DNA of 64,000 nucleotides from Deltaproteobacteria bacterium (GCA_019308995.1 JAFDHD010000001.1:64241-128240), one strand, 5' to 3'; positions 22,675-44,097 are shown, numbered from the stretch's first letter. Notes: generated by a model not told the origin, from the sequence alone. Translations and numbers: made by a program.

Positions 22675-22680
22675 GCCAGC

Positions 22681-23742
22681 ATGCTTGAAGATTTGACCAA
22701 AGTGGAGCAGAGGTTTAACCGGCTCGAAAATGAGCTGTCGCAGCCCGAGATTCTCAAAGACAGGGACCTCTATCAGAAAACCCTGCGCCAGCATGCCGAG
22801 CTTTCCAAGGTTGTGAACGCTTACCGCCGCCTTAAGAAATTACGAACTGAAAAGGAGGAGACCCAGGAACTCCTGCAGGACCCGGATGAGGAAATGCGGC
22901 AGATGGCTGAAACCGAGCTTGCCCGGTACCAGGACCTCATTAAGGCCGCGGAGAAAAATCTTGAGCTGCTTCTGCAACCTAAAGATCCCAATGACAGCAA
23001 GAATGCCCTCCTCGAGATTCGGGCCGGGACCGGAGGCGAGGAGGCAGCCCTTTTTACGGCTGACCTCTTTCGGATGTACAGCCGGTATGCTGAAAAATTG
23101 AAGTGGCGCATCGAAGTCCTGAGCAGCCATCCGACTGGCACGGGCGGGTTTAAGGAGATTATCGCCCTGATTGAGGGAGACCGGGTATACGGCCAGCTCA
23201 AATATGAGAGCGGGGTTCATCGGGTCCAGCGTGTTCCCACGACCGAGTCTCAGGGCCGCATTCATACCTCAGCCGTAACCGTAGCCGTCCTGCCCGAAGC
23301 TGAAGATGTGGATGTGGATATTAAGCCCGAGGACCTGAAGGTTGATGTCTATCGCTCATCAGGTCCGGGCGGTCAGAGCGTCAATACCACAGACTCAGCG
23401 GTCCGGATCACTTACCTGCCCAGCGGTCTAGTGGTAACCTGCCAGGACGAAAAGTCTCAACACAAGAATAAGGCCAAGGCCCTTAAAGTGCTTAAGGCTC
23501 GCCTTCTTGATATAAAGGTTCAGGAACAGCAGGATAAAATCTCTGAGGATCGGCGCGGCCAAGTGGGCTCCGGCGACCGCAGCGAACGCATTCGAACTTA
23601 TAATTTTCCGCAGGGCCGCATGACCGATCACCGGATTAACCTGACCATTTACCGCCTTGATTCGATTCTTGAGGGGGACATCCAGGAGATTATTGACACC
23701 CTGGCGACCCACTTTCAAGCCCGGACTTTAAAGACGTTTTGA
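22681..23742 (+). CDS. prfA: Peptide chain release factor 1
   Basis: 353 aa with the GGQ motif ([20 protein letters not shown]) and the PxT region ([12 protein letters not shown]). Confidence 0.95.
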
Positions 23743-24680
23743 GCAAGCAAGTCCCATCCGGCGGTCATTCAGAACCCTGGACCGTCCTGCGCCTCATCCA
23801 GTGGACAACGAGTTACCTGACTGGCAAGGGTGTGAAGAGAGCCCGGTTTGATGCTGAGGTCCTGTTGGCTGATTTACTGGAATTGAGTCGGGTTAAACTG
23901 TACCTCAACTATGATCGCCCTTTAAACCAGCCGGAGCTGAAGGCCTTTCGGGAACGAGTGCGGCGCCGGGCTGATTTTGAGCCTGTGGCTTATATCACCG
24001 GTCATAAGGAATTCTATTCACTCGAACTTAAGGTTGACCGCGGAGTGCTCATACCCAGGCCCGAGACTGAACTTCTGGTTGACGAGACTCTCAAAGCGGC
24101 TCAAAACCAGCTTTCAGATCATGAAGCAGAAATCGGGTCCCTTCATATCGTTGACCTTGGGACAGGCTGCGGCGCGATTGCCTTGGCTCTTGCCAGCAGG
24201 TTGTCACAGGCCAGGATCTGGGCAATAGATCTCTCGGAAAAGGCCGTAGAGATCGCCAGGGCCAACGCTAAGCGGCATGGACTGGAATCACGAATCACCT
24301 TCCTGCAGGGTGACCTGCTTGAACCGCTGAGAGATCGAACCGATTACTTCCACCTCATCGCCGCCAACCTGCCTTACGTTCCCCGGATCGCCTTTGACGA
24401 CATGGCTCCGGATGTCAAGGACTTTGAGCCCAGGCTGGCGCTGAATGGCGGGGAAGACGGATTGGACCTGATCACGAAGGCTGTCGCCCAGGCCAGAGCG
24501 CTTCTGCGGCTTCAAGGCGCGCTGCTCTTAGAGATCTGGCATACCCACGCCCCGGCGGTCAGAGAGATGGGAAGGACGTGCGGCTACAATCAGGTCAGGA
24601 TATGCAAGGACCTGGCCGGGCGTGACCGTGTGGCAGTGCTGATAAAGAACAATCCCGGAGGTTCAGTCAGTCATGGATAA
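23739..24680 (+). CDS. prmC: Release-factor glutamine N5-methyltransferase
   Basis: SAM-binding motif [10 protein letters not shown] and a catalytic NLPY (variant of NPPY). The TTG start overlaps the prfA stop. Confidence 0.85.
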
Positions 24681-25935
24681 GATGATCATTGACGGTGGCG
24701 AGAGGCTCGAGGGCGAGGTGACCATTAGCGGGGCGAAGAATGCGGCCCTGCCCATCATGGCCGCAACCCTGCTGGCCGATGGAACCTCGGTCCTGGAAAA
24801 TATCCCGGATTTACGAGACATCAGGACCATAGCCGAATTACTGCGCCGGTTGGGCGCTCAGGTTGATCTCGACTCGGGTCGGGCTGAAATCAATACCAGC
24901 CCAGTCAATAACCTGATCGCTCCTTATGATCTGGTCAGAACCATGCGGGCCTCAGTCCTGGTGCTGGGGCCGTTGCTGGCCCGTCATGGCAGAGCCCAGG
25001 TCTCATTGCCCGGCGGCTGTGCCATTGGCACCCGACCGATCAACCTGCACCTCAAGGGCCTGGCAGCCATGGGGGCCGAGATCACGCTGGAACATGGCTA
25101 CGTCAAAGCAAAGGCCCCTTCCCAGGGACTACAGGGGGCGGAGATCTTCCTCGATCTGCCCACAGTGACCGGTACTGAGAATCTCCTTATGGCCGCCGTC
25201 CTGGCTGAGGGTACGACGGTCCTTAGAAATGCAGCCCGGGAACCGGAGATTTCCGACCTGGCAGGCGCCTTGTCCGCCATGGGGGCTCAAATCGAGGGAA
25301 GTGGCACAGATGTCATCACTGTTCAAGGAGTCAAATCCCTGGAGGCGATGTCTTACAATGTCATGCCTGACAGGATTGAAGCCGGGACGTTCATGGTTGC
25401 CGCCGGAGTAACCCACGGCCGGATCACCATGAGGCAGGTCCCCCTGGCCACTCTGACAACCGTGGAAAACAGGCTCAGACAGGCCGGCCTGACATTCGAC
25501 CGTCAAGGCGAGGATGCGGTCGTGGTAACCGGCCCTGCGGTAATCAATTCCGTTGACGTCAAGACCGAACCCTACCCCGGTTTCCCCACAGATATGCAGG
25601 CCCAGTTTATGGCCCTGATGTGCCTGGCCAGCGGCCTCTCGGTAATAACGGAAACTGTCTTTGACAACCGGTTCATCCATGTGGATGAGCTCAAGCGCAT
25701 GGGCGCTGACATCAGGTTGAGCGGGAATACAGCCATTGTCGAGGGGCTTCCCTCTCTATTGGGCGCGCCGGTCATGGCCACCGATCTTCGCGCCAGCGCC
25801 TCCCTCGTTCTGGCCGGCCTGGCTGCCAAAGGGCAGACCGAACTTTCGCGGGTTTATCACCTTGATCGAGGCTACGAACGGATTGAAGAAAAGCTTTCTG
25901 CTCTCGGCGCCCGCATCCGCCGGATTAAGGCCTAG
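24673..25935 (+). CDS. murA: UDP-N-acetylglucosamine 1-carboxyvinyltransferase
   Basis: 420 aa with SGAKNAALP near the N-terminus and the active-site loop [15 protein letters not shown]. Confidence 0.95.
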
Positions 25936-29973: not shown

Positions 29974-30699
29974 TCAGTGATATGTCTGAGATCTGGAGGC
30001 CAGGGACCGCAGGTGGTAATCCCACCAAAGACGGAAGATGTTATAGAACCGATAGAGGGCTTCATTTAACAAATTAAATTTGCTGGCACGAAAGTCCTCA
30101 CAGAACACCGGGATCTCTATGGCCCGCCCCCCGTCGGACAAGGCATGGTAGATGATATCCAGGACATAGGAGGTCCCATGGTTGATGCGGTCGAGATACT
30201 TGACGATTATCTCCCGGCGGTAGGCCTTGGCCGCGATGGAGTAATCTTCAAACGGGAGGCCGACCAGGGCGCGGACGGTAAGAATAAAGGCCGTGCTTCC
30301 GGCTTTACGCCACAGGGCGCGCCTTTGGGTGCCCATTTTCTTGGAGCCGATCACGATATGATAGTCCTGCATGAGATCCAGCGCCTGGCTGATGAAACTC
30401 AGATCAACGGAGAGATCCATGTCCACCGAGATGATCTGGTCATAGCGCGCTTGATTTACTCCCAAAGAAAAAGCGCGCCCGACCCCCTTTTCAGGAATTT
30501 CGAGGAAGTGAACCTGATTATGCGCCTGGGCCAGGTTCCGGCCAAGCCGAGTGGTCTGATCGGTCGAGCCGTTACTGACGAGGATAATCTCAAAGGGCCG
30601 CTCTAAATCTTCACAGAAGCCCAGGAGACGACCTGTATTGGCCTCAATAATATCTCCCTCATTTAAGACCGGGATCAGCACTGTCAGGCCGGACTTCAC
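29974..30699 (-). CDS. Family-2 glycosyltransferase (polyprenyl-phosphate sugar synthase-like)
   Basis: 241 aa starting LTVLIPVLNEG, with an acidic VDMD motif. The short soluble form resembles Dpm1/GtrB/ArnC-type enzymes. Its start overlaps the upstream gene's stop by 4 nt. Confidence 0.75.
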   Translation of the reverse strand: MKSGLTVLIPVLNEGDIIEANTGRLLGFCEDLERPFEIILVSNGSTDQTTRLGRNLAQAHNQVHFLEIPEKGVGRAFSLGVNQARYDQIISVDMDLSVDLSFISQALDLMQDYHIVIGSKKMGTQRRALWRKAGSTAFILTVRALVGLPFEDYSIAAKAYRREIIVKYLDRINHGTSYVLDIIYHALSDGGRAIEIPVFCEDFRASKFNLLNEALYRFYNIFRLWWDYHLRSLASRSQTYH

Positions 30700-32027
30700 T
30701 GCACGAACTCCCAGAACAACCGCATCCGCCTGAGCTTCTCCTTAAAAGTTCCTTCCCTGAAGCGGGCCAGGACGTAAGCCGGACGGAGATAAAAAGAAAG
30801 AAAGGCTCGTCGAGCCTGTCGGGATAAAAGATCAAGATCGTGCTCGCGGCTCAGGCAGGCAGGAAAAGGATCATCCTCACCGGCCAGCCTGTTCAGTTCG
30901 GTCCCGGGATAGGGTGAGGCAATATGGAAAGAGGCAAAGGTGGGATTCAGCTCACGGGCAAGTCTCATCGTAGCCCTGCGGTCCGCCTCTGTTTCGCCTG
31001 GCAGACCAAAAAGAAAGAAGCAGGCCGTAGCCATGCCCAGCCGGTGACAGTGGTCCAGGCTGGTTCTGATCTGATTTAAAGAGATCTTCTTGTTCGTTTC
31101 GTCAAGCAGGCGGGGTGAACCCGTTTCCACCCCGAAATGAATCAGGGCGCAACCTGCTTCCTTCATCAGGGCCAGTAGTTCAGGGTCCACCGCATCGGCC
31201 CTGGTCTGGCAGCACCAGCGAAAGTCCAGATTCATCCTGATTAATTCCTGGCAAAGATTGATCGTATCCTCTTGTTTCAGACCGAACTCCAGGTCAATAA
31301 AATAGACAGATTCGGCCCTGTACCGGCCCACGACCTCTTCCACTTCGGCCAGAACCCGCGGCCAGGCCTTTGTCCTTAACCCGGAACCATACATGGCCTT
31401 CAGGCAGAAAATGCAGGAAAAGGGACAGCCCCTGGAAGTTTCGAGCAGAGCGAGGCGGCGGCCCAGCAGCTCATAGCCGTAATACTTAAAATCAATTAGA
31501 TCATAGGCAGGCCGGGGAAGCAGGTCAAGACTAATCTGGCCCTGATCCGGCTCCTGAATGATCCTTCCGGAGTCCTGGTAGGACAGCCTGGCAATGCCTC
31601 GCGGATTTCCGCCGGCCTCGGCCAGTTCAACTATCGCAGCTTCGGGTTCTCCCCGAATCAGGGCCGCGGCCCGGGTCTCTCTGAGCATTAGTTCCGGCCG
31701 CACCGTACCATGAGCCCCGGCCAGGACCAGTTTTTCCCGCGGCAGCCGCCGCGCCAGGTTTACCAGCCCCTCCCAGTTAAGGTCCGGGCACTGCCAGCGG
31801 TCTAATGGACTGGACTCAAGCACCACCAGATCAGCGCTCCGCGCGGCGCGCCTTATTTCTTCGAACCCGGTTCCAGTGGCCCGGGCGTCTATCAAGGCAA
31901 CCTCGTGCCCGGCCTGCCGGAGCATGGAGGCGGCGATGAGTAAATCGAGCGGAGGCCAGGCCCGGTTGTAGCGCCGGGCCCTGGAACGAGCCGCCTTGAA
32001 ATCAGGGTTGATCAGGAGTACTTTCAT
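30696..32027 (-). CDS. B12-binding-domain radical SAM protein
   Basis: 443 aa. The N-terminal Rossmann-like region (MKVLLINP...LLIAASMLRQAGHEVALID) is typical of class B radical SAM enzymes, and the CX3CX2C cluster motif is GCPFSCIFC. Confidence 0.8.
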   Translation of the reverse strand: MKVLLINPDFKAARSRARRYNRAWPPLDLLIAASMLRQAGHEVALIDARATGTGFEEIRRAARSADLVVLESSPLDRWQCPDLNWEGLVNLARRLPREKLVLAGAHGTVRPELMLRETRAAALIRGEPEAAIVELAEAGGNPRGIARLSYQDSGRIIQEPDQGQISLDLLPRPAYDLIDFKYYGYELLGRRLALLETSRGCPFSCIFCLKAMYGSGLRTKAWPRVLAEVEEVVGRYRAESVYFIDLEFGLKQEDTINLCQELIRMNLDFRWCCQTRADAVDPELLALMKEAGCALIHFGVETGSPRLLDETNKKISLNQIRTSLDHCHRLGMATACFFLFGLPGETEADRRATMRLARELNPTFASFHIASPYPGTELNRLAGEDDPFPACLSREHDLDLLSRQARRAFLSFYLRPAYVLARFREGTFKEKLRRMRLFWEFVQ

Positions 32028-35000
32028 GGCCGGGCTTTCTGATTAAGACTTTCCATAACCTGCCGCGAATACCTGCCCCACCGGGTTTCCGAATAGTCGT
32101 CTATGACCTTCTGGAGCGCCTTCCGGCCCTCCTCTATGGCGCCGAGATGGAGGTTGACCAGTCCGAGGTGATAATACGCTTCAGCAGTATATTCACCCGG
32201 CGCATAAGCTGCCAGTAAATCTTGAAACGCAATCAGGGCCTCAGGCCATTCTTCCGCCTTGAATAAAGAGATGGCGCTGAAATAGGCGGCACGCTCCTTT
32301 AAGTCTTGGCGGTCTGCTTTTTCCCGCGTCCGATCAAAAAGGATTCGCGCTTCCCTGTAGCGTCCTTGATCAAATAGATGCATGGCCTTCTGAAAAAGCT
32401 CGTTCGGTCTGTATATTTCGGATAAGCGGCGGCCGGATTCCACGGCCCACACCGAATCCGGGAATTTATGCAGCACCTCTCTGAAGACGCGAACGGCTTG
32501 CTCAGACCGACCCAGGCGCAGGTGGCAGAGTCCGATGTGGTAGAAGGCCTCAGGTAAAACCCGGCTCTCCGGGTATTCAGCCGGGAAGCGGGTCCAGGCA
32601 GCCAGGGCCTCTTCATAATGCTTCTCGTTAAAATAAGAAAGGGCCAGATGGTGCAGGGTCTGTCCCACGATAGGCGAAAGTGGAAACCGCTCGAGCGCTT
32701 CGTTGAAAACGGTTCGAGCCTTTTTATAATTCTGAGCCTTAAAAAATTTGAGGCCGCGGTTGTGATAGATGGTCGGATCCCGGTAATGTACGGCCAGGAT
32801 AAAGAGCATGAGGCCCGTCAAAGCCAGGCCGATCACGATTCCCAGGATAAGGCCGGCCCGGGGCCGTATCATGGCCGCCAGCCCGGCCAGGGGCCGGTCA
32901 AGGGGCGTTGAGAAATCCGGCTCCAATGCCCGGCCGCGCTTGGAAAAAAGACGGCTCAAGGCATAGAAGACGCCCAGGATGCTCAGCCCCAAACCCAGGT
33001 ATTCAGGCCAGGTGCGGTGAAAATAAAGCCGAACCCGGGACTCTGTCGGAAAGACAAGCATAAAGGCCGGGCTGGCCCGCCAGACCCGGTCTGCGCCTTC
33101 AACACGCCAGTTGGGGTGGTAAGAAACTTTAATCCAGAGCGGGCGGCCGGGCACTGCGCCTTGGATGATGATTTCATTATTTTTAATGGTCTCCCTGAGT
33201 TCGTCCGAAGAGGCAAGAGGGCGCCGGGGAAGGTTGCGTACCTGGTCCTTGAACTCGCCCGGGCCGATAACAGCGTCAAAATACTTTTCCTCCGCCGCGC
33301 TGACCTTTGCCGCAAATACCAGAGGCACTTCAAGGTCGCTCCACCTGAACCAGGTGAAGGCGTCGGCTTTGGGATCTTCTGATCGCGCCAGGACCGGTCT
33401 GAATCGGGGCTGAATGACATACCGGTTCTGGTTCTGAGCCAACCCGAAAATGGCAAAAGGAGGATATTCTTTGTCTAGCTCAAGACCAGGGGCCCGCAGG
33501 GCCTCGGCCCTGGCTTTTTCGGTCACGGTTATATACTGACTCACATTAAAGAGCTCCAAATGCCTTTGCCCTCTGGCCAGATCGAAGCGGCTGTAATTAT
33601 AATTTGGGAGCGGCGAGGAGTAGATTTTAGAGACCTCGGACTGGATGTAGAACACAAAGGGAGACGAGAGGCTGGACTGCATATACAGCCCCTCCAGGGT
33701 TGCCCGGCCAGCAAAAAGAGGCAGGGATTCAAAAGCCCGGAGCGTGCCGACCGCTCTGGTTTCAGCGGCATGTTCATAGACTACCCGCGGATCGGCAAAG
33801 GTGCCTTGCAGGTAGTCATTCAACTCTTTGAAGGGCGCCCAGAGCCGCTTGTTTTCGTAACCGGTATAATTCCAATCCATCCACTGACCGATAAAATGCA
33901 CCTGATGGGCGATCCAGACCATGGCGCCAATGGTTAAGGCCAGGGCGGCCAGGGATTTCAGACGAAAACGGCCCAGCAGGCGTCCCGCGCCCACTGCTCC
34001 AAGAAGAACGAGCAAGACCTGCCCAAAAGGCACAAAGCGGATGTCTACCATCCCGATCTTGGGGGCGATGAGATAAAAAATGCAGACGATGAAGATTAGA
34101 TAGACAAAAAAAAGGACCCGGCTTTTTTCGGCCGGTGATTGGCGAACAAGCGGCAGGCCGAGAGCCGCTCCAACCAAGGCCAGCCCAATAAACGGCCACA
34201 GGATGCGCGGGAAAACCTGCAAAACACCGTCTATGATCCAGATAAAATTATAAGGCACGGTGTAAGGTAAAAAGAGGAGTAAAGGCACGATCCAGAAACC
34301 CATGAAGCAGAAGGCCAGCAGATTAACCTTGAGGATATAGACCAGCCGGAAAAGCCAGTTGCGGGTCGTAATCAGGAAAAAACTCACCCCGGCTACACAA
34401 AAAAGCAGAGGGTAACCGTGGGCCAGACCGATCAAAGCCAGGAGGAGGGCGTTGGAAACAACGTGCCGGCCGGATTCGATGCCGCGATAGAAGCGGCCGA
34501 GATAGATCAGGGCCAGGGTCAGCCCCATACCGTAAGCAAATTCGCCGGCCAGCGTTGAAGGAATGTTGCCTCCCCACATGGAATTGGCCTCCATGAAAAG
34601 AAAAGACAGCACAAAAACCATGCCCAGTTCAGGTTCAGGAGTCTTAAAACCCATCTGTTTAAGACCAAGGTAAGCCCCGACCGGAAGAGTGAAAACGCCA
34701 GCAAGGCTGATGATCCTGAAGGCTATGGTCATGGGCATGACCAGGCTCAGCAGGCTCATCACTAGAAACGGCAGGGGGAAATAAAACTGGAACAAGGGAA
34801 AACCGGCATAGTTGCCCGGCAGCCAGCCCATGATACGCCACTGAGGCAGAAGATGCTCCTTGAGAAAAACCGCGCTCAAATAGTGGCTGGCCGTGTCGCC
34901 CCCGGTGACAAGGGCGTCTTTCAGGATGAGTTCGAGTTTAAGGTGGCTGAAAAGAAAGAGATAGGCAAGTATGAACAGACTGACTTTTGCCAGCCGGTTC

Positions 35001-35038
35001 AAGTTTTTTTCCCTGGGGTAAAGAGAGATCAAGCCCAA
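32024..35038 (-). CDS. Large polytopic membrane protein with a periplasmic domain and C-terminal TPR repeats (possible GT-C-type transferase)
   Basis: 1004 aa. By eye it has about 11-13 TM helices in the first ~380 aa, then a ~300-aa soluble region, then 2 TM helices, then ~260 aa of TPR-like repeats (AEAYYHLGL, EAFYHIGLCHLRLGR). It has GGDTASHY in the first loop and QWMDWNYTGY right after the last N-terminal TM. Confidence 0.6.
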   Translation of the reverse strand: MGLISLYPREKNLNRLAKVSLFILAYLFLFSHLKLELILKDALVTGGDTASHYLSAVFLKEHLLPQWRIMGWLPGNYAGFPLFQFYFPLPFLVMSLLSLVMPMTIAFRIISLAGVFTLPVGAYLGLKQMGFKTPEPELGMVFVLSFLFMEANSMWGGNIPSTLAGEFAYGMGLTLALIYLGRFYRGIESGRHVVSNALLLALIGLAHGYPLLFCVAGVSFFLITTRNWLFRLVYILKVNLLAFCFMGFWIVPLLLFLPYTVPYNFIWIIDGVLQVFPRILWPFIGLALVGAALGLPLVRQSPAEKSRVLFFVYLIFIVCIFYLIAPKIGMVDIRFVPFGQVLLVLLGAVGAGRLLGRFRLKSLAALALTIGAMVWIAHQVHFIGQWMDWNYTGYENKRLWAPFKELNDYLQGTFADPRVVYEHAAETRAVGTLRAFESLPLFAGRATLEGLYMQSSLSSPFVFYIQSEVSKIYSSPLPNYNYSRFDLARGQRHLELFNVSQYITVTEKARAEALRAPGLELDKEYPPFAIFGLAQNQNRYVIQPRFRPVLARSEDPKADAFTWFRWSDLEVPLVFAAKVSAAEEKYFDAVIGPGEFKDQVRNLPRRPLASSDELRETIKNNEIIIQGAVPGRPLWIKVSYHPNWRVEGADRVWRASPAFMLVFPTESRVRLYFHRTWPEYLGLGLSILGVFYALSRLFSKRGRALEPDFSTPLDRPLAGLAAMIRPRAGLILGIVIGLALTGLMLFILAVHYRDPTIYHNRGLKFFKAQNYKKARTVFNEALERFPLSPIVGQTLHHLALSYFNEKHYEEALAAWTRFPAEYPESRVLPEAFYHIGLCHLRLGRSEQAVRVFREVLHKFPDSVWAVESGRRLSEIYRPNELFQKAMHLFDQGRYREARILFDRTREKADRQDLKERAAYFSAISLFKAEEWPEALIAFQDLLAAYAPGEYTAEAYYHLGLVNLHLGAIEEGRKALQKVIDDYSETRWGRYSRQVMESLNQKARP

Positions 35039-35043
35039 GTCTT

Positions 35044-35847
35044 TTACGCCTTCTTGTCAGGACGAAGCAATTGAAACAAGACCACCACAAGACCCAGGGC
35101 CAATCCGAAGATAATCAGGGCCACGGAGTGCTTTTTAAAAAAATTTTGATCCTGAGCCACCCGGACCTTGCTTTCGGCCACATTGCTGTAATGCCGTCCG
35201 TCGGCCTCGTATTCAAGGAAGGATATGACAGGGTATACTGAGCCTTCAAGGGCTGAGAAGTTTTTCAGTTTAAAGCTCACCTTCCCCTTCCCCTGGGCTT
35301 TGATGCGCAGACCTTGCTCCGCCGGGTTCACCTTTAACTCTTGCGGTACGATCAAGCGGATTCGTACTTCCCGCTCGACCCGGTCCATATTGAGCACCTC
35401 GAGGCGCAGCCTGGTCTTGCCAGTCATAACGACTTCAGTCGGCCGCACAAAGACCTGCATATTGACGCCTTCTTGATAAACAAAGGACGCATGAGACAAA
35501 CTGGAGAAAAGATAGCCGTTGAGGTCGTGAAAATCCACCCGAACCTCAACCGGATAGGAGCCAGGTAGGGACAGCTGCGGATGCAGGGTCAAAAAAGCGG
35601 TAAAAGACTCGCCCGGCTTGAGCGCGGGTTTTATCCCGGATGAACGGACCGTATTCTGAAAAATGGCATGGATCTGGACGTTCGCCGCGGCTTCATCTCC
35701 CATATTGGTCGTGGTGACATTTATTCTGACTCCGTCCTGCATTACCGTACAGGTAGCGTAAGTCTGTATGGAAATGAAACCGGCTTCAGCGGAGAAGGCC
35801 CATGAAATAACAGCGAGATAAAGAATGGAAAATAGTAATCTTTTCAT
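35044..35847 (-). CDS. Exported beta-rich protein with a C-terminal membrane anchor
   Basis: 267 aa with a signal peptide (MKRLLFSILYLAVISWAFSAEA) and a C-terminal TM followed by a basic tail (ALIIFGLALGLVVVLFQLLRPDKKA). The middle looks like two Ig/CARDB-like beta domains, which is inference. It is the first gene of the operon. Confidence 0.55.
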   Translation of the reverse strand: MKRLLFSILYLAVISWAFSAEAGFISIQTYATCTVMQDGVRINVTTTNMGDEAAANVQIHAIFQNTVRSSGIKPALKPGESFTAFLTLHPQLSLPGSYPVEVRVDFHDLNGYLFSSLSHASFVYQEGVNMQVFVRPTEVVMTGKTRLRLEVLNMDRVEREVRIRLIVPQELKVNPAEQGLRIKAQGKGKVSFKLKNFSALEGSVYPVISFLEYEADGRHYSNVAESKVRVAQDQNFFKKHSVALIIFGLALGLVVVLFQLLRPDKKA

Positions 35848-35906
35848 GAAAGCACGCTCTTTATAGAGATGGCCTAATCTTTACCACATGACCCCCCAAC
35901 ATCAAA

Positions 35907-35947
35907 GAGCCTTTTTTAAATTCTACGGGGAACTTTCAAAAAGGCTC
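35907..35947. other. 10-bp perfect hairpin in the divergent region upstream of the 35847 operon
   Basis: gagccttttt (35908-35917) pairs with aaaaaggctc (35938-35947), with a 20-nt loop. Confidence 0.5.
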
Positions 35948-36015
35948 CACCCTAAATAACCCCTTCAAAAAGCATTTCACAGAAGCGACTGTTTACCTGA
36001 TGCCGGCTCAGCCTT

Positions 36016-36054
36016 GTAGGTCAGGGTGATCCGCAAAGCGGGCCTCCCTGACAA
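36016..36054 (+). repeat. REP-like unit: GTAGG plus hairpin
   Basis: gtaggtcagggtgatccgcaaagcgggcctccctgaca shares both ends with the unit at 121-148. Confidence 0.5.
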
Positions 36055-36126
36055 TATTGACTCACAGCTGCCTTGTGAATCCCAAGCATGAACCTTGACA
36101 TTCCACAGGCTTTTGCGGTAGTCTGA

Positions 36127-37848
<1,722 letters not shown>

Positions 37849-37888
37849 GCCAGGCTCCCTGGTTGAGAGGAATTATAAGGAATAGTCT

Positions 37889-38737
37889 ATGACGAAGATT
37901 ATACATATCGGCGACCTTGCGGTCGGGGGTGATCAGCCGCTGCTGGTGGTGGCCGGACCCTGCGTTCTCGAGGAACCGGAGATGGTGTTGAACCTGGCCC
38001 GCTTCCTGAAGACCGAAACTGAAAAGCTGGGTCTGCCTTATGTCTTTAAGGCCTCATATGACAAGGCCAACCGAACCGATATCCATTCCTTTCGCGGCCC
38101 CGGATTGAAAGAAGGCCTGGCTCTGCTTAAAAAAATTCGGGAAGAGGTCGGGGTCCCGGTCCTGAGCGACGTTCACTCGGTGGCTGAGGCTGAGGCCGCG
38201 GCCGAGGTCCTTGACGTCATTCAGGTCCCGGCCTTCCTGAGTCGTCAGACGGATATCGTTCAGGCAGCGGCCCGGACGGGAAAGGTCGTCAATGTCAAAA
38301 AAGGCCAGTTCCTGGCTCCAATGGATATTCGTTACGTCATTAAGAAGATTACCGCGGCAGACAATGAGAATATCATGATCACCGAACGAGGCACCTCCTT
38401 TGGTTACAACAATCTGGTCGTGGATATGCGTTCGCTGCCCATTATGCGCTCGTTCGGCTATCCGGTTATCTTTGACGCCACTCACAGTGTTCAGCTGCCC
38501 GGGGGCGGCCAGGGTGCTTCCGGGGGTGAAAGACAGTTCGTGGGACCGCTGGCCCGGGCCGCGGTGGCGGCCGGAGTGGACGGGGTCTTTATGGAGGTGC
38601 ATCCTGATCCTGATTGCGCCCTGTGTGACGGCCCCAATTTACTACCTCAAGATCATTACCCGAACCTGCTTCGGCTCCTGAAGGAGATAGATTCGGTAGT
38701 CAAACGCGAATTAAAGGAGACCAGGCGTGAATCCTGA
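37889..38737 (+). CDS. kdsA: 3-deoxy-8-phosphooctulonate (KDO8P) synthase
   Basis: 282 aa with the motifs QVPAFLSRQTD and FDATHSVQLPGG. Confidence 0.9.
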   Translation: MTKIIHIGDLAVGGDQPLLVVAGPCVLEEPEMVLNLARFLKTETEKLGLPYVFKASYDKANRTDIHSFRGPGLKEGLALLKKIREEVGVPVLSDVHSVAEAEAAAEVLDVIQVPAFLSRQTDIVQAAARTGKVVNVKKGQFLAPMDIRYVIKKITAADNENIMITERGTSFGYNNLVVDMRSLPIMRSFGYPVIFDATHSVQLPGGGQGASGGERQFVGPLARAAVAAGVDGVFMEVHPDPDCALCDGPNLLPQDHYPNLLRLLKEIDSVVKRELKETRRES

Positions 38738-39248
38738 CCGGACCCGAATTGAGCCGATCAAGCTGGTTATCTTTGACGTGGATGGGGTCCTGACCGATGG
38801 GCGCATTGTTATTGACAATAACGGCATCGAGAGCAAGTTCTTTGATGTTCGAGATGGCACCGGCATTAAATGGCTCGTACGGGCCGGGCTTCGAGCGGCC
38901 TTTCTGACCGGCCGTGAGAGTCGGGTGGTGGAGTTTCGGGCGGCAGAACTGGGAGTGACCATCATCCGCCAGGGGGCAAAGGACAAGGTCAAGGCCTATG
39001 AGGAGATACTGGCAGAGTTAGGCTTGAGCGACCGGGAGGTAGCTTTTGCCGGGGACGATTTGATTGATTTGCCGGTCCTGCGCCGGGTCGGCCTGGCCAT
39101 AGCCCCGGCCGACGCCAGGCCTGAAGTCAAGGCCGTAGCGCATTATGTCTGCCAGAATGCCGGCGGCCGGGGTGCAGTCCGGGAGATGGCTGAAATGATC
39201 CTGAAGGGTCGAGGACTCTGGGAGGAGGTTGCGGCCAGGTATTTTTAA
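38727..39248 (+). CDS. kdsC: KDO 8-phosphate phosphatase (HAD family)
   Basis: HAD motif I is FDVDGVLTDG. It is 173 aa and sits between kdsA and lptC. Confidence 0.8.
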   Translation: MNPDRTRIEPIKLVIFDVDGVLTDGRIVIDNNGIESKFFDVRDGTGIKWLVRAGLRAAFLTGRESRVVEFRAAELGVTIIRQGAKDKVKAYEEILAELGLSDREVAFAGDDLIDLPVLRRVGLAIAPADARPEVKAVAHYVCQNAGGRGAVREMAEMILKGRGLWEEVAARYF

Positions 39249-39391
39249 TTTGCTTCGGTACGCTTATTGTTTCTTTTCCTGCCTCTGATTGTTGAATATC
39301 GGCATAATTTTTGCTTTACAGGTTTCGACTTCCCTGATATTATTTGATTGAACAGAAAGGATCTCGGTGAATTGACCGCTGGAGAAAGGGT

Positions 39392-39955
39392 GTGCTGCAT
39401 TTACGGAAAGTCAAAATCCTGCTCCTAACCTCCTTGGTAGCCCTAGCCGTGGCGAGTGTGGGCTTGTTCTTCTGGGGGAAACACCTGCACCCTGCTCCCA
39501 CACGGGCGCTCAGCCTGCTGCCGATAAATGTGGACATGCACCTCAAAGGTGTGAATTATACGGAAATGAAAGAAGGGCGTAAGGAGTGGACTCTCAAGGC
39601 CGACACGCTGCGATACTCCAAAGCCGCGCAGCTTCTTCATTTTGATCAGGTTGAGATAGCCCTTCTTCGCGCTTCCCAGGGAGTGATCATTGTGACCGGA
39701 GAAAAGGCCGATTATGATCGAAAGATCAACCTGGTTCGCCTCAGCGGCCGCGTTCTGGTCCATAACCTCGAAGGTTATCGCGTCACAGCAAGGGAGCTGA
39801 TTTATAAAGTGGACACAAACCAGGTGCTCATTCCAGGCCGCTTCAGAATCGTCGGTCCCAAACTTACCCTGGAGGGACGCGGTTTGTCCTTGGATATAGG
39901 TAACCGTCTTTTGCAGATAGGTCAGAAAACCAGGATTTTTTTCAAGACAACCTAG
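39392..39955 (+). CDS. lptC: LPS export system protein LptC
   Basis: 187 aa with a single N-terminal TM and a beta-jellyroll-like remainder. The kdsC-lptC-lptA-lptB synteny supports the call. The GTG start follows GGAGAAAGG. Confidence 0.65.
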   Translation: MLHLRKVKILLLTSLVALAVASVGLFFWGKHLHPAPTRALSLLPINVDMHLKGVNYTEMKEGRKEWTLKADTLRYSKAAQLLHFDQVEIALLRASQGVIIVTGEKADYDRKINLVRLSGRVLVHNLEGYRVTARELIYKVDTNQVLIPGRFRIVGPKLTLEGRGLSLDIGNRLLQIGQKTRIFFKTT

Positions 39956-39971
39956 GAGCTTCATTAAAGAA

Positions 39972-40694
39972 ATGAAGATTTCCATCGTCTTTCTTTTTCT
40001 ACTCTTGTCCCCTTTTTTACTCCTGTCAACTAGCCCGGGCAGGGTCCTGTCTGCAGAGGCGCAAACCCGGAAGGCGAGTGCGGCTTCCATTGAGCAGGAT
40101 GTTTCAAAAGTCAAACCTCCTTCAACTTTGCAGAAAAAAAAGGCGCCCCACGGTTCAATACAAATCGTCACAGACCGCCTTGAAGCCGATGATAAGAAGA
40201 AGGTGGTCCTTTTAACCGGAAACATCACCATTCGCTGGGAGGATTTCGTCCTGACCTGCGATCAGGCACGGGCATACTATAAAGAAGTGAGGGTTAAACC
40301 AAAGGCAAAGGACAAAGGCTCGATTCATAAGGCGTCTTCTGCCAAATCAGATCCCTCCCCTGAAAGTCCATCAGGTAAAGAAACAGAAATCCATCATGAG
40401 ATCATACGGTTAGAGGCTGAAGGGCATGTCAAGGTCACCCTGAAAAACAGGGTCGCCCTTTCTGGAAAAGCGGTTTATGAAGCTAAATCGCGTTTGATTA
40501 TCCTGACCGACTCTCCCCGCGTCTGGCGCGGCAAGGATTTCCTATGCGGCGACCGAATCACGGTTTATCTTGATGAGGACCGGAGCGTCATTGAGAGCGG
40601 ACCAAAGAAAAAGGTCAGCGCCACCTTTTATCAGCCGCCAGAAACAAAGGGACAGGCTCCAGTGAAAAAAAACAGCGGCAAGGTGAACCCGTAA
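39972..40694 (+). CDS. lptA: LPS transport periplasmic protein LptA (OstA-like)
   Basis: It has a signal peptide and an OstA-like repeat pattern ([33 protein letters not shown]). Synteny also supports the call. Confidence 0.7.
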
Positions 40695-41473
40695 TGTCTT
40701 CCCTAGCCGTCAAGACGCCTGTTTTACGAGACCTCTCGTCCAAGGCTCCGGAGGTCAGGCTCAGGGCTGAGGAACTGGTCAAGAGCTATGGGCGGAAAAG
40801 AGTAGTGGACCGGATTTCTTTCAAACTCGACCATGGTGAGATTGTGGGACTTTTAGGCCCTAACGGTGCAGGAAAAACAACCACTTTTTACATGACCGTT
40901 GGTTTGATTCAGCCGGATGGAGGCCGCGTTTTTCTTAATGAAACCGACCTGACCCAGGTTCCGATGTACAAACGCGCCCGGCAAGGCATTTCCTATCTCC
41001 CCCAGGAACCGAGCGTCTTTCGAAAATTAACGGTTCAGGATAACATTCTGGCCATCCTGGAGACCTTACGCCTCTCACGGGCCGAACGGCAGCGCCGACT
41101 GGAAGAGCTGCTCGAGGAACTGGGCATTGCGCACCTGGCCAGGACCAAGTCTTACGCCTTATCCGGCGGTGAGCGGCGACGTGTGGAAATAAGCCGAGCC
41201 CTGGCCACCGTACCGTGCTTTATCCTTTTAGATGAGCCTTTCGCCGGTATTGACCCCCTGGCCGTGATTGATATTCAGAACATCATCTTACATCTCAGGA
41301 AGCAGGGCATTGGGATTCTAATCTCGGATCACAATGTCCGGGAAACCTTGGGCGTCTGTGACCGGGCTTATATTCTCAATGATGGGGTCGTCATTGAGGA
41401 AGGTTCGCCAGAGAAGATCGCGGACAGTGAACTGGCCCGTAAGGTTTATCTGGGTGATAATTTCAAGCTTTAA
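40694..41473 (+). CDS. lptB: LPS export ABC transporter ATP-binding protein
   Basis: Walker [10 protein letters not shown], signature LSGGERRR and Walker [10 protein letters not shown]. It lies immediately upstream of rpoN. Confidence 0.9.
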
Positions 41474-41498
41474 TCTTCAGGTTAATATATAGATATCC

Positions 41499-42941
41499 AT
41501 GGGCCTGCAATTACGACAAACCCTCAAACTTACCCAGCAGCTGGTGATGACTCCCCAGTTGCAGCAGGCCATTAAGATGCTTCAGCTATCACGGTTGGAG
41601 CTGCTGCAGACCATTCGTCAGGAGCTTGAGGAGAACGCTGTCCTGGAAACAGACCAGGATGAGGATATAATTACTGATGAAGGGGATGGGCCTGACGGCG
41701 AGCAGCCAAAAACTGTCTCTGAGAATGATTTTACCGAGGTTCGGGTGGAAGAAAAGGCCCGGGAAGATATTGACTGGGCAAGTTATCTGGATGAATACAG
41801 TTCATCTTCAGCCCCGAGCATGCGTGAAGTCCCGGAAGAGAGTAATTACGAAACCTTTATTTCAGCAAAAACCTCCCTGGTTGACCACCTGACCTGGCAA
41901 TGGCGCATGGGCGACCTCACCCCCCGGGAAGACCTCATAGCCGCCCAGATTATCGGCAACCTCGGCGAGGACGGGTACCTGCAGATAAGCCTGGAAGAGA
42001 TCACGGTCATGGAAAACATGCCGCTGGAGGAGGTGCAGCAGGTCTTGGCCAAGGTTCAGGAACTGGACCCGGTCGGAGTCGCTGCCCGTGATTTACGCGA
42101 GTGCCTTCTCATTCAGTTAAAATACCTGGGGCAGACAGGGAGCCTTGCTGAAAGGATAGTGTCCGAGCACCTGTCTGAACTGGAAAAGAAGAATTATCAA
42201 AAGATCGCTAGAAAGCTTAAGACCAGCAAGGAGAAAGTCTTCGAAGCCGTTGAGATCATCCTCAATTTGGAACCCAAACCCGGGCGGTCATTTATCACCG
42301 AGGAGCCACAGTATATTACGCCTGATGTTTATATTTACAAGATCGGTGGTGAGTATGTCATCGTACTAAATGAAGACGGGCTGCCTCGACTCAAGGTTAA
42401 CCGGTACTACCGGGATATTCTTACCAATCGGAAGGCCGTCTCAGACCAGACCAAGGAGTACATCCAAGGCAAGCTTCGGTCCGCCGTCTGGCTGATTAGA
42501 AGCATTCATCAGCGGCAGCGAACTATTTACCGCGTCACAGAATCAATTATCAAATTTCAGCGTGAATTTCTGGATAAAGGCATCCCCTACCTCAAACCAC
42601 TGGTGCTGCGGGATGTGGCTGAAGATGTTGAGATGCACGAATCCACCATCAGCCGGGTAACCAGTAACAAGTATGTCCATACACCCCAAGGAATCTTTGA
42701 GCTGAAGTTCTTTTTCAACAGCTCCATAAGTAAATTTGACGGTGAGTCCTTGGCTTCGGAAAGCGTTAAGGAACGCATCCGGAAAATCATAGCCGCCGAG
42801 GACCCCCATAAGCCCCTATCTGATCAGCGCATTGTTGAAATTTTAAGGGCGTCCAATATTAACATCGCTCGACGGACAGTAGCTAAGTACAGGGACATGC
42901 TGGGTATTCTGTCATCGAGCAAAAGGAAAAAGCACTTCTAG
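41499..42941 (+). CDS. rpoN: RNA polymerase sigma-54 factor
   Basis: The N-terminus is Gln/Leu-rich (LTQQLVMTPQLQQAIKMLQLSRLEL), and the RpoN box ARRTVAKYR is near the C-terminus. Confidence 0.95.
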   Translation: MGLQLRQTLKLTQQLVMTPQLQQAIKMLQLSRLELLQTIRQELEENAVLETDQDEDIITDEGDGPDGEQPKTVSENDFTEVRVEEKAREDIDWASYLDEYSSSSAPSMREVPEESNYETFISAKTSLVDHLTWQWRMGDLTPREDLIAAQIIGNLGEDGYLQISLEEITVMENMPLEEVQQVLAKVQELDPVGVAARDLRECLLIQLKYLGQTGSLAERIVSEHLSELEKKNYQKIARKLKTSKEKVFEAVEIILNLEPKPGRSFITEEPQYITPDVYIYKIGGEYVIVLNEDGLPRLKVNRYYRDILTNRKAVSDQTKEYIQGKLRSAVWLIRSIHQRQRTIYRVTESIIKFQREFLDKGIPYLKPLVLRDVAEDVEMHESTISRVTSNKYVHTPQGIFELKFFFNSSISKFDGESLASESVKERIRKIIAAEDPHKPLSDQRIVEILRASNINIARRTVAKYRDMLGILSSSKRKKHF

Positions 42942-42989
42942 CCGCATCGCAAACGCACGGCAAGAATTAGTTATTAAAGGAGATTATTC

Positions 42990-43538: not shown

Positions 43539-43563
43539 TTAGCCATAACTATGGGAAGTAATA

Positions 43564-44022: not shown

Positions 44023-44097
44023 GCTGGCCGTTAAAGACGAGCTTCTGCTGTCTGCAGTCCAGTCTTGGAATCTTCTTTGGAAGTTCCGGAAAAACAC

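Follow-up and report, generated by a model that had tools for sequence, protein, structure and literature searches.

A conserved four-gene module built around a PF10131 GT-C protein, with a proposed role in glycosylation from polyprenyl-phosphate-linked sugars

Four adjacent genes in a deltaproteobacterial genome, encoding an exported protein, a large GT-C protein, a radical SAM enzyme and a GT2, belong to a module that is conserved in many bacterial phyla and in some archaea. On balance, and with modest assurance, we favour the view that this operon carries out polyprenyl-phosphate-sugar-dependent glycosylation outside the cytoplasmic membrane, organised around a GT-C enzyme of Pfam family PF10131 and including modification of the lipid-linked sugar by radical chemistry. 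This sizeable GT-C family, in which no member is characterised and no structure solved, now has a conserved genetic context of donor synthase, partner subunit and tailoring enzymes, which makes it a directly testable unit.

The operon and its distribution

The window, the whole 64-kb stretch of DNA that was analysed, carries the operon on the minus strand at 35847-29974. The open reading frames and junctions, read directly from the sequence, are as follows:

35044-35847, minus strand: exported-protein ORF, 267 aa, with a pair of CARDB/Ig-like domains and anchored C-terminally by a TM segment
32024-35038, minus strand: large GT-C ORF, 1004 aa, TTG start
30696-32027, minus strand: radical SAM ORF, 443 aa, N-terminal B12-binding-type domain
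29974-30699, minus strand: GT2 ORF, 241 aa, GTG start
35848-36135, no strand: spacer between the operon and the divergent pyrG, presumed to hold the operon promoter

A gap of 5 nt separates the exported-protein gene from the GT-C gene (TAA-aagac-TTG) and the two remaining junctions are 4-nt overlaps (ATGA and GTGA), exactly the tight coupling that a previous sequence-only reading of this DNA had claimed. The start given for the large gene agrees with the annotation (P0001, 1004 aa, 100% identical), the TTG codon being a putative start. The start codons of the operon and of pyrG are 288 nt apart; the region between them contains one sigma-70-like match on the minus strand (36079-36051), which is a match to consensus only, and gave neither an Rfam family nor a riboswitch.

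Across 80 related loci from more than eight phyla, archaea included, only the four operon families recur. Among the 41 loci with sufficient flanking sequence, the CARDB gene is present in 32, the GT2 gene in 26 and the radical SAM gene in 17, whilst five have none of the partner genes nearby. All three partners are present in 12 of the 41, and the proposal that these genes belong together, which had been made to depend on their co-occurrence in other genomes, stands on this point. The gene order and strand seen in the window recur in at least eight loci, including examples from Acidobacteriota and Gammaproteobacteria. The exported protein, the GT-C protein and the GT2 form the core of the module; the radical SAM gene is an optional accessory module outside the universal core. 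The sequence-only reading had counted it as part of the unit, and it does recur beside the system genes, but in only about 40% of loci. The module was also found in Aenigmatarchaeota, Hydrothermarchaeota and one Actinomycetota MAG, and the archaeal copies, at 42-45% identity, suggest that an envelope-modifying system has passed from one domain to another.

The absence of a match to any known pathway, suspected from the outset, was also confirmed: the NCBIfam scan of the operon proteins reached no equivalog cut-off, the matches to HpnJ, ArnC and HpnB (16 bits against 379 for the last) all lying far below. A literature search found no published description of the four-gene system.

The GT-C protein and its exported partner

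The large protein matches PF10131 (PTPS_related) over residues 83-583 with an E-value of 2e-41 (142.4 bits against a gathering threshold of 26.4). This family is a member of the Pfam GT-C clan CL0111 and is listed as 'function unknown' (PMC7801869). When an AF2 model of residues 1-705 (pLDDT 89.3, pTM 0.90) was compared with the PDB by Foldseek, ranks 1-17 were all GT-C enzymes (E 1e-7 to 1e-1), headed by AftD (E 1e-7, TMq 0.47) and followed by STT3, AftA, AglB, PglB, ArnT, Pmt4 and AftB; beyond rank 17 came unrelated transporters with E>0.1 and TM-scores of about 0.1. The model thus has the GT-C fold on which the earlier proposal had been staked, every PDB match at E<0.1 being a GT-C enzyme. 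STT3/AglB/PglB and the mycobacterial AftD/AftA are the best structural matches (TMq 0.42-0.47), but there is no similarity to them at the sequence level. The N-terminal profile gave no match to a solved structure in the PDB, and the Pfam scan gave no match to STT3 (PF02516), so that the protein does not belong to the STT3 family by sequence. A search for PF10131-type proteins returned more than 1,600 homologues, and two short family motifs were matched in 248 species genomes. The parts of the protein are:

33899-35038, minus strand: GT-C transmembrane catalytic core, residues 1-380 (PF10131, AF2 and Foldseek)
34895-34903, minus strand: G46-G47-D48, first extracytoplasmic loop, candidate catalytic aspartate, invariant in alignments
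33011-33898, minus strand: periplasmic alpha/beta domain, residues 381-676 (AF2 secondary structure)
33860-33883, minus strand: W-x-x-W-N-Y-x-G segment, residues 386-393, immediately following the final TM helix of the core
32786-33010, minus strand: two-helix TM hairpin, residues 677-751 (AF2 helices 677-699 and 715-751)
32024-32785, minus strand: C-terminal TPR domain, residues 752-1004 and stop codon (Pfam TPR families; CpoB/YbgF- and BamD-like)

The AF2 secondary structure, in which about 13 helices at the N-terminus and an alpha/beta domain (383-675) are followed by the two hairpin helices and then the TPR domain, agrees with the layout previously claimed (11-13 N-terminal TM helices, an extracytoplasmic domain of about 300 aa, two more TM helices and a long TPR region). 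The G46-G47-D48 motif lies just after TM1 (H8-32) and is invariant in alignments A1, A2 and A4 (35-39 sequences, 38-74% identity). D48 supplies the conserved acidic residue expected of GT-C enzymes in the first extracytoplasmic loop, and comparison with the acidic EL1 residues of these enzymes makes it a candidate catalytic residue. The alpha/beta domain is rich in invariant charged residues (R418, E422, R434, E437, R445 and E449). The loop of the hairpin is probably cytoplasmic because it is rich in K and R (the positive-inside rule), which would return the chain to the periplasm, and the TPR domain is likely to be periplasmic. This domain matches the NCBIfam models YbgF (109 bits) and BamD (97 bits), with CpoB, YbgF and BamD as its PDB sequence matches; archaeal homologues and some from bacteria, at about 700-760 aa, lack it.

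The sequence-only reading had drawn attention to QWMDWNYTGY and called its likeness to the WWDYG motif of oligosaccharyltransferases weak. It had placed the segment at 33861-33886, which is wrong (residues 385-394 correspond to 33857-33886), and its verdict understates the conservation. W386 and G393 do not vary and W389 reaches at least 90% conservation, which puts W..WNY.G among the most conserved parts of the PF10131-type family; it sits just after the last core TM helix, a position comparable to that of WWDYG in STT3/AglB/PglB. The segment has N in place of D and carries one extra residue, the comparison being one of position. The donors would also differ: oligosaccharyltransferases (OSTs) use a lipid-pyrophosphate oligosaccharide, whereas that of the operon is presumed to be a lipid-monophosphate monosaccharide.

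Hydropathy gives the exported protein a signal peptide (residues 4-22) and a C-terminal TM helix (242-260). It passes the Pfam CARDB threshold marginally (PF07705, E 9e-5, 23.0 bits against 22.7), and its homologues P0246, P0091 and P0098 have precomputed PF07705 matches; the export signal, beta-rich domains and C-terminal anchor recognised earlier are all there. N48, G50, A54 and D108 are invariant in the family alignment (A5). In about 27 loci a CARDB homologue is encoded immediately upstream of the GT-C, and in about ten it is fused to the GT-C N-terminus in one continuous ORF. In the P0091 fusion, residues 14-279 comprise the entire CARDB protein, anchor included, and residues 321-1169 the GT-C plus TPR. 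Because such natural fusions exist, we take the exported protein to be more probably a subunit that partners the GT-C in the periplasm than a substrate alone. Its suggested role as substrate is to that extent displaced, although it may hold in addition. The non-catalytic OST subunits Wbp1/OST48 and Swp1 have beta-sandwich domains and one C-terminal TM helix, and a GT-C with an obligatory, sometimes fused Ig-domain subunit would give eukaryotic OST, with its accessory subunits, a simple prokaryotic model.

The same observations bear on whether the system glycosylates proteins in the manner of OST, PMT or TMTC enzymes, with the CARDB Ig-domain protein or similar surface proteins as acceptor and the TPR domain binding the protein substrate. 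The CARDB gene is the commonest partner of the GT-C gene and stays with the system in archaea (L048, L055 and L074), most of the top structural matches are oligosaccharyltransferases, W..WNY.G stands where these have WWDYG, and TMTC1-4 are likewise built as a GT-C followed by a C-terminal TPR domain. Furthermore, N196 of the CARDB protein is near-invariant in A5 and in most of the bacterial proteins is part of an N-x-S/T sequon. Archaeal members (NFG, NYG) and L054 (NRA) do not have this sequon, however, and an N-x-G at this position is a general hallmark of CARDB domains. The TPR domain is missing from many homologues, and fusion of a complete CARDB protein to the GT-C fits a permanent subunit better than a substrate that is turned over. 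We therefore consider protein glycosylation of this kind unlikely, though it deserves serious attention. Both systems involve Ig-like proteins: the targets of TMTC proteins are the Ig-like domains of cadherins, whereas the Ig-like protein of the operon is apparently a fused or partner subunit. In these eukaryotic O-mannosyltransferases the N-terminal GT-C is likewise followed by a non-cytoplasmic TPR region; the operon protein is prokaryotic and has, ahead of the TPR, a further periplasmic domain of 290 aa and a TM hairpin. TMTC1-4 are components of an O-mannosylation pathway, and PF10131 is among the Pfam families most like their N-termini (HHpred E about 1e-14 to 1e-16; PMC7801869).

The GT2, the radical SAM enzyme and a proposed route

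The signature motifs of the two remaining proteins are:

31404-31427, minus strand: CxxxCxxC radical SAM cluster motif, C201/C205/C208 (GCPFSCIFC), invariant in A3
30415-30423, minus strand: D93-x-D95 (DXD) of the GT2, invariant in A6 (29 sequences)

The GT2 matches Glycos_transf_2 (Pfam, E 2e-16), and its best PDB sequence matches, ArnC (5e-14), GtrB (1e-8) and PfDPMS (2e-4), place it with the polyprenyl-phosphate glycosyltransferases, as had been proposed for this short soluble protein. The best NCBIfam match, ArnC at 68 bits against a cut-off of 529, lies below equivalog level. D47, R127, R131, D152 and E195 are invariant in A6 besides the DXD motif, and 48 loci have an orthologue at 39-77% identity. 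Its 241 aa contain no predicted TM segment, so the C-terminal TM helices of ArnC, GtrB and PfDPMS are lacking; TM-less members of this type exist, human DPM1 for example, and the lack of such helices does not exclude activity. Linkage to an ArnC/GtrB/DPMS-like GT2 lends indirect support to the use of a polyprenyl-phosphate-linked donor by the GT-C. The GtrA/GtrB/GtrC, CsbB/GtcA/YfhO and pentofuranose systems likewise combine a polyprenyl-phosphate GT2 with a polytopic GT-C acting outside the membrane (PMC11127046). The operon differs from these three-component systems in that its GT-C comes from another family, in that it adds a TPR domain, a radical SAM enzyme and an Ig-domain partner that looks obligate, and in the flippase, since no GtrA/ArnE-type gene is conserved among the related loci.

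The radical SAM protein passes the Pfam B12-binding cut-off (44.6 bits against 32.1) and matches Radical_SAM with 83.7 bits, and with its CxxxCxxC core it has the domain make-up of class B, the label given to it earlier. Alignment A3 shows W78-Q79-C80-P81 (DRWQCP), E127-P128-E129 (GEPE), the three cluster cysteines and W271/C273-Q274-T275-R276 (WCCQTR) to be invariant. The protein forms a B12-domain subfamily of its own, with at least 938 homologues at E<=1e-30. Members adjoin other genes of the system in six of six sampled places, against none of 69 paralogue loci, and the subfamily is largely dedicated to the GT-C/GT2/CARDB system; some orthologues are found in other settings, as in L088, between a sulfatase-family protein and a methyltransferase. 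The nearest named relatives include two glucosamine-ring enzymes: HpnJ, the best NCBIfam match (TIGR03471, 157.5 bits, below the equivalog cut-off of 577.6; 127.8 bits for the relative in L086), and AprD4, the best PDB match (6fd2, 2e-30). Next come BchE (147 bits), ApyD (130 bits) and the MCR glutamine methylase QCMT/MgmA (PDB 9ccb, 1e-19), and because these act on tetrapyrrole or proteins, sequence similarity does not fix the substrate class. The use of B12 is likewise only putative, because AprD4, whose N-terminal domain is similar, does not bind cobalamin (PMC12931638).

A YdjC deacetylase, a GNAT protein or both accompany or replace the radical SAM gene in some lineages, as judged by Pfam. 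The combinations seen are radical SAM alone, as in the 64-kb window, which contains neither YdjC nor GNAT; YdjC and GNAT alone (L065, L067); radical SAM and GNAT (L082); and all three. In some loci YdjC, radical SAM and GNAT are adjacent with overlapping frames, by 25 nt and 4 nt in L081 and by 4 nt and 4 nt in L086, a setting that speaks for sugar tailoring.

For glycosylation outside the membrane, the reading we favour, we infer an order of steps, together with the sugar, the radical SAM substrate and the acceptor. The peripheral GT2 would transfer a monosaccharide, probably a hexosamine derivative, from a nucleotide sugar to polyprenyl phosphate at the cytoplasmic face. The cytoplasmic B12-domain radical SAM enzyme would then modify the lipid-linked sugar by C-methylation, deoxygenation or an HpnJ-like rearrangement, with the YdjC deacetylase acting before this step and the GNAT N-acyltransferase after it in related genomes. 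NaxD, a YdjC enzyme that works on a lipid-linked sugar ahead of a GT-C, offers a precedent (PMC11279074). Some flippase would carry the lipid-linked sugar across the membrane, and the complex of GT-C and membrane-anchored two-Ig-domain protein would pass the sugar to an envelope acceptor, the periplasmic TPR domain helping to select or position a protein partner. We know of no report of a radical SAM enzyme acting on a sugar donor that is bound to a lipid; the closest cases are epimerisation by DprE1/2, deacylation by ArnD or NaxD, and the action of HpnJ on a hopanoid-bound sugar.

It is possible, if rather speculative, that the dedicated radical SAM subfamily remodels the polyprenyl-phosphate-bound sugar (C-methylated, deoxygenated or ring-contracted, with optional YdjC deacetylation and GNAT re-acylation) and that the two-subunit GT-C/Ig-domain enzyme moves the product to the cell surface, in a process common to anaerobic bacteria of many phyla and to DPANN and other archaea. 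This would be new chemistry and might account for some unidentified modified sugars that sulfate reducers, syntrophs and anammox bacteria carry in their envelopes, and the module would make an as yet undescribed envelope glycoconjugate.

Likeness to lipid A and hopanoid pathways

The GT2 is nearest by sequence to the ArnC-like enzymes of the ArnC/ArnD/ArnT, FlmF2/NaxD/FlmK and LgmA/C/B pathways, in which the lipid-linked sugar is tailored before GT-C transfer. NaxD, a YdjC enzyme, deacetylates undecaprenyl-phosphate-GalNAc ahead of that transfer, and the YdjC deacetylase of the Flm and Lgm pathways has a counterpart in related loci, where the set of ArnC-like GT2, YdjC and GT-C parallels pathways of the NaxD type (PMC11279074). 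Since ArnC is the best GT2 match and the operon runs divergently from pyrG-kdsA-kdsC-lptC-lptA-lptB, the module might in the same way add a modified (amino)sugar to lipid A or the LPS core. We regard this as improbable. The kds/lpt neighbours are retained, among the loci compared, only in the closest relative (L010). The GT-C belongs to PF10131 and not to ArnT/PMT_2, ArnT ranking only 14th among the structural matches, and the radical SAM, GNAT and CARDB proteins are additional to those pathways. Moreover, the module occurs in Aenigmatarchaeota, Hydrothermarchaeota and Actinomycetota, in which, to our knowledge, no lipid A is made.

The formation of hopanoid glucosamine and cyclitol ether side chains by HpnI/HpnK/HpnJ follows the same order, from GT2 to YdjC to a B12-domain radical SAM enzyme acting on a lipid-bound aminosugar. 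That the operon serves a kindred pathway, in which GT2, YdjC and radical SAM build an aminosugar or cyclitol head group on a hopanoid or other membrane lipid, would suit HpnJ as best NCBIfam match of the radical SAM protein and the scores of 131-147 bits of the YdjC proteins against HpnK, but seems to us very improbable indeed. All the Hpn scores are far below equivalog cut-offs, and the ArnC-like GT2 has no HpnI match at E<=0.1 in the NCBIfam scan. The presumed lipid of the operon is a polyprenyl phosphate carrier and GT-C transfer follows, whereas a GT-C and an exported Ig-domain partner have no place in the known Hpn route. The module also occurs in archaea, which make no hopanoids as far as we know. 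A squalene-hopene cyclase and an HpnG-like nucleosidase do adjoin the module in L032, L082, L083 and L086, but not in the window or other loci; this adjacency is confined to one lineage, within which the cyclases are 81-86% identical.

A conserved four-gene operon

The operon consists of four minus-strand open reading frames, in agreement with the sequence-only reading:

35044-35847, minus strand: exported protein with two Ig-like domains (CARDB protein, 267 aa)
32024-35038, minus strand: large GT-C protein (1004 aa)
30696-32027, minus strand: radical SAM enzyme (443 aa)
29974-30699, minus strand: GT2 enzyme (241 aa)

Direct reading of the junctions confirmed the tight packing: a 5-nt gap (TAA, aagac, then a TTG start) separates the CARDB and GT-C genes, and 4-nt overlaps follow at the GT-C/radical SAM (ATGA) and radical SAM/GT2 (GTGA) junctions. 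Upstream, the operon is bounded by a 288-nt region common to it and the divergent pyrG, in which no riboswitch or other RNA element was found with Rfam; downstream, the end of a convergent ThiF-family gene lies 21 nt away. The flanks on both sides are ordinary chromosomal housekeeping genes:

one flank: nuo genes, ppdK, rho, prfA-prmC, an EPSP-synthase-family gene and a Na/Pi transporter
36136-44973, plus strand: other flank, pyrG-kdsA-kdsC-lptC-lptA-lptB-rpoN-hpf-ptsN-rapZ, co-directional and divergent from the operon

The pyrG-to-rapZ neighbourhood is retained only in L010, the locus of the closest relative with flanks. At 21715-25935 on the plus strand, a DUF1385 gene, prfA (RF-1), prmC and the EPSP-synthase-family gene (encoding MurA or AroA) are closely packed in one direction, separated by short gaps or overlapping. 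The GT-C and CARDB proteins are 100% identical to proteins from a 130-kb contig of a 'Deltaproteobacteria bacterium' MAG, annotated there as 'tetratricopeptide repeat protein' and 'hypothetical protein' respectively.

A scan of one genome per species identified 248 species encoding a GT-C relative, and 80 loci were examined, using crude ORF calls with a tblastn cross-check. Represented are Thermodesulfobacteriota of many orders, anammox Planctomycetota, Acidobacteriota, Gamma- and Alphaproteobacteria, Binatia, Margulisiibacteriota, an Actinomycetota MAG and, among the archaea, Aenigmatarchaeota, Hydrothermarchaeota and one other archaeon. Clustering of all ORFs from the 80 loci left only four widely recurrent families: GT-C, GT2 (in 48 loci), the CARDB protein (in 42) and the radical SAM protein (in 31); no other family exceeded 10. 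The four genes thus co-occur well beyond the window, as partner counts in the 41 loci with enough flank also show.

Partner genes within 8 kb of the GT-C gene (41 loci)
CARDB protein: 32/41
GT2: 26/41
Radical SAM protein: 17/41
All three partners: 12/41
No partner: 5/41

The order CARDB, GT-C, radical SAM, GT2 on one strand recurs in eight related loci (L002, L004, L005, L006, L010, L016, L018 and L019), including one each from Acidobacteria (L018) and Gammaproteobacteria (L019); L001 has the same order with its first gene truncated by the contig end. Taken together, the recurrence of the partners and of the window's order indicates a core of CARDB, GT-C and GT2, with the radical SAM gene as an accessory. 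A search with the CARDB alignment profile returned just 15 matches, all 'hypothetical', the word index being too insensitive for so fast-evolving a protein.

Four archaeal loci from Aenigmatarchaeota, Hydrothermarchaeota and an uncultured archaeon (L048, L055, L068 and L074) carry the module, without the TPR domain, at 42-45% identity to the window's GT-C protein, as high as for many bacterial members; this degree of sequence identity suggests transfer of the module between domains. Two of them, L055 and L074, additionally encode two GT2 enzymes and a second GT-C (PMT_2+TPR-like cluster c18).

The GT-C protein and its exported partner

The large protein matches Pfam PF10131 'PTPS_related' (E 2e-41), a member of the GT-C clan of unknown function (PMC7801869), together with TPR families. 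AlphaFold2 models built from alignments of 37-39 sequences scored pLDDT 87.8 and pTM 0.82 at full length, and pLDDT 89.3 and pTM 0.90 for residues 1-705, which were modelled alone because TPR matches swamped the full-length search: there, TPR proteins dominated the PDB list and only AftD gave a GT-C signal. In a Foldseek search of the PDB, the 705-residue model retrieved GT-C enzymes at all of its first 17 ranks, led by AftD (E 1e-7, TMq 0.47) and including yeast and human STT3, AftA, AglB, PglB, ArnT, Pmt4 and AftB; the subsequent ranks were unrelated transporters with E>0.1 and TM-scores near 0.1. The GT-C fold proposed from sequence alone is therefore upheld. Searching the PDB with a sequence profile of the first 700 residues gave no meaningful match, so that PF10131 is a family without a sequence-detectable solved relative.

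Across homologues at 38-74% identity, no variation is seen at G46-G47-D48 (first external loop), W155-G156, R334, W386 or G393, nor at many of the charged positions in the 290-aa periplasmic domain. Conservation is at least 90% at E150/N152 and W389; D332 reaches this level in every alignment and is invariant in one of them. The sequence-only reading had picked out QWMDWNYTGY, after the last N-terminal helix, as weakly recalling WWDYG. The segment lies just after the last core helix and belongs to a W-x-x-W-N-Y-x-G-[FY]-E stretch that is strongly conserved across homologues. From the full-length model and the positive-inside rule we infer that two extra TM helices and a K/R-rich connecting loop return a CpoB/BamD-like TPR domain to the periplasm. 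At L084:5481-8000 (CP070769.1, a 2.38-Mb genome), the ORF called for PF10131 is just 593 aa long, with no CARDB gene upstream and about 740 nt without a called gene before the radical SAM gene; it may be a frameshifted or decaying copy.

In the CARDB protein, a signal peptide precedes two CARDB-type Ig-like domains, and an anchor lies at the C-terminus. A natural fusion, P0091 (1169 aa), matches the whole CARDB protein over residues 14-279, signal peptide and TM anchor included, and the GT-C plus TPR protein over residues 321-1169; a continuous CARDB/GT-C ORF is also found in the homologue P0098 and in about ten genomic loci. The fusion keeps the topology, with the Ig domains outside followed by the anchor helix, a cytoplasmic linker and the first GT-C TM helix. 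Such a fusion is, at the level of sequence, classic Rosetta-stone evidence for physical association, and favours the CARDB protein being a non-catalytic subunit of the GT-C enzyme. Eukaryotic OST subunits, with a beta-sandwich plus anchor, may resemble it in this respect.

The exported protein had originally been put forward as a possible substrate, and the fusions count against that role. The idea of a protein glycosylation system whose acceptor is the CARDB protein is nonetheless kept alive by the structural likeness of the GT-C domain to OST (the likeness to OST or AftD being one of fold), by the GT-C+TPR architecture, which resembles that of TMTC, and by N196 (35260-35262), which is near-invariant in A5, the CARDB family alignment, and which most bacterial homologues have as part of an N-x-S/T sequon (NFS). 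In archaeal members, however, the sequon is missing (NFG or NYG), and the residue may instead be an N-x-G hallmark of the second CARDB domain. We regard this reading as rather unlikely, while rating it above the other alternatives considered below.

GT2, radical SAM and accessory enzymes

In the GT2 enzyme the DXD motif is invariant and no TM segment is predicted; among proteins of solved structure, the enzyme is closest to ArnC (5e-14), GtrB (1e-8) and Pyrococcus DPMS (2e-4). In the radical SAM protein a B12-binding-type domain scores above the Pfam threshold. The best named relatives, HpnJ (157 bits), BchE, ApyD and AprD4, all fall far under their equivalog cut-offs; in the PDB the protein is most similar to AprD4 and to the MCR glutamine methylase QCMT. 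AprD4 is a counter-example to inferring cobalamin use from a B12-type domain (PMC12931638), so that such use is only putative here. The orthologues form a tight subfamily with the signature motifs DRWQCP, GEPE and WCCQTR, and at least 938 members at E<=1e-30, none specifically named.

Viewed from the radical SAM side, the linkage holds: this subfamily adjoins other genes of the system in 6/6 sampled places, with PF10131 and GT2 within 5 kb in 5/6. A metagenome scan with the radical SAM profile returned mostly distant paralogues, which served as a negative control; orthologues (at least 270 bits) and paralogues (at most 182 bits) separated cleanly, and partner genes were found in 0/69 paralogue loci. 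Of the orthologues with useful flanks, those of L087 and L090 have a GT-C gene and those of L088 and L093 lack one; the L088 orthologue has a sulfatase-family membrane protein on one side and a methyltransferase on the other. A few kilobases from it, at L088:570-3574 (contig Ga0302253_1001027), a PMT_2-family GT-C gene (512 aa) overlaps a second B12-domain radical SAM gene (489 aa) by 4 nt. GT-C and radical SAM pairing thus recurs outside the PF10131 family, and may reflect a broader pattern not yet described.

The module of Desulfobacteraceae- and Desulfatiglandales-like genomes is split into two convergent operons, GT-C then GT2 in one and CARDB, YdjC (deacetylase), radical SAM and GNAT (N-acyltransferase) in the other. 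YdjC/radical SAM and radical SAM/GNAT overlap by 25 and 4 nt in L081, and by 4 nt each in L086; in one 8.2-Mb genome the two halves (L047 and L081) are about 570 kb apart. Loci L065 and L067 have GT-C, YdjC, GNAT and GT2 with the radical SAM gene absent, L082 has CARDB, radical SAM and GNAT with YdjC absent, and the window has radical SAM as its sole accessory gene, neither YdjC nor GNAT being found across the 64 kb. Such mix-and-match would be expected of sugar-tailoring enzymes. There is precedent in NaxD, a YdjC enzyme which deacetylates undecaprenyl-phosphate-GalNAc before GT-C transfer of the sugar (PMC11279074).

A proposed pathway and its alternatives

Beyond folds, families and linkage, everything is what we infer. 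The explanation that we consider best, and marginally probable as a complete chain, is that GT2 would charge polyprenyl phosphate with a monosaccharide, the radical SAM enzyme would remodel the lipid-linked sugar at the cytoplasmic face (a step flanked elsewhere by YdjC and GNAT), an unlinked flippase would move it across the membrane, and the GT-C/CARDB complex would transfer the sugar to an acceptor. Our confidence is higher for the passage from GT2 through a lipid-phosphate-sugar to GT-C transfer, and lower for the radical SAM step. No conserved flippase was found among the ORF clusters of the related loci. The YdjC and GNAT genes of related loci hint at a hexosamine, as do the nearest named radical SAM relatives, HpnJ and AprD4, which act on glucosamine rings; a UDPGP-family pyrophosphorylase neighbour (L084) and glucosamine-6-P-isomerase-like fragments (L085) are further hints.

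The logic resembles that of three-component and Arn/Flm/Lgm-type periplasmic glycosylation systems. Decoration of lipid A or LPS is improbable, being weakened both by the archaeal members and by a GT-C family other than ArnT. The trio of GT2, YdjC and B12-domain radical SAM presumably mirrors the logic of HpnI, HpnK and HpnJ, but a hopanoid head-group pathway is very improbable and is ruled out as a general explanation, since the Hpn family cut-offs are unmet and adjacency to squalene-hopene cyclase is confined to one lineage. In that Desulfatiglandales-like lineage (L086:3096-5977, L082:4678-7517, L083:498-3337 and L032:17681-20517), the cyclase, 81-86% identical among members, and an HpnG-like nucleosidase (scoring 149 bits where the cut-off is 187) directly adjoin the CARDB end of the tailoring operon, which is CARDB-YdjC-radical SAM-GNAT in L032 and L086 and lacks YdjC in L082/L083.

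None of the equivalog cut-offs tested for the window's and related proteins was reached and the GT-C protein has no sequence relative in the PDB; by these sequence criteria the system is a member of no characterised family, as the earlier suggestion of an uncharacterised system had anticipated. Literature searches on PF10131/PTPS_related, on GT-C with radical SAM and YdjC, on anammox S-layer glycosylation and on AglS found no description of the module or of PF10131-based systems. The lipid-carrier GT2 and GT-C principle is already established; what is new lies in the GT-C family, in the Ig-domain protein that partners it and in a dedicated radical SAM tailoring set with or without YdjC and GNAT.

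In four loci of anammox Brocadiaceae (L022, L025, L028 and L029), a Wza-like exporter is encoded after the paired GT-C and radical SAM genes, and beyond it, in the first three, a Wzc-like tyrosine-kinase co-polymerase and a Wzy_C/O-antigen-ligase-like protein, which hints at a polysaccharide acceptor in this lineage. Six other loci (L037, L042, L050, L051, L052 and L063) have a DUF2079 protein of about 690 aa, from another GT-C clan family, near the PF10131 gene; the one that was scanned (L037) carries a CBM_4_9 carbohydrate-binding domain as well, and these loci suggest multi-GT-C glycan assembly in some lineages.
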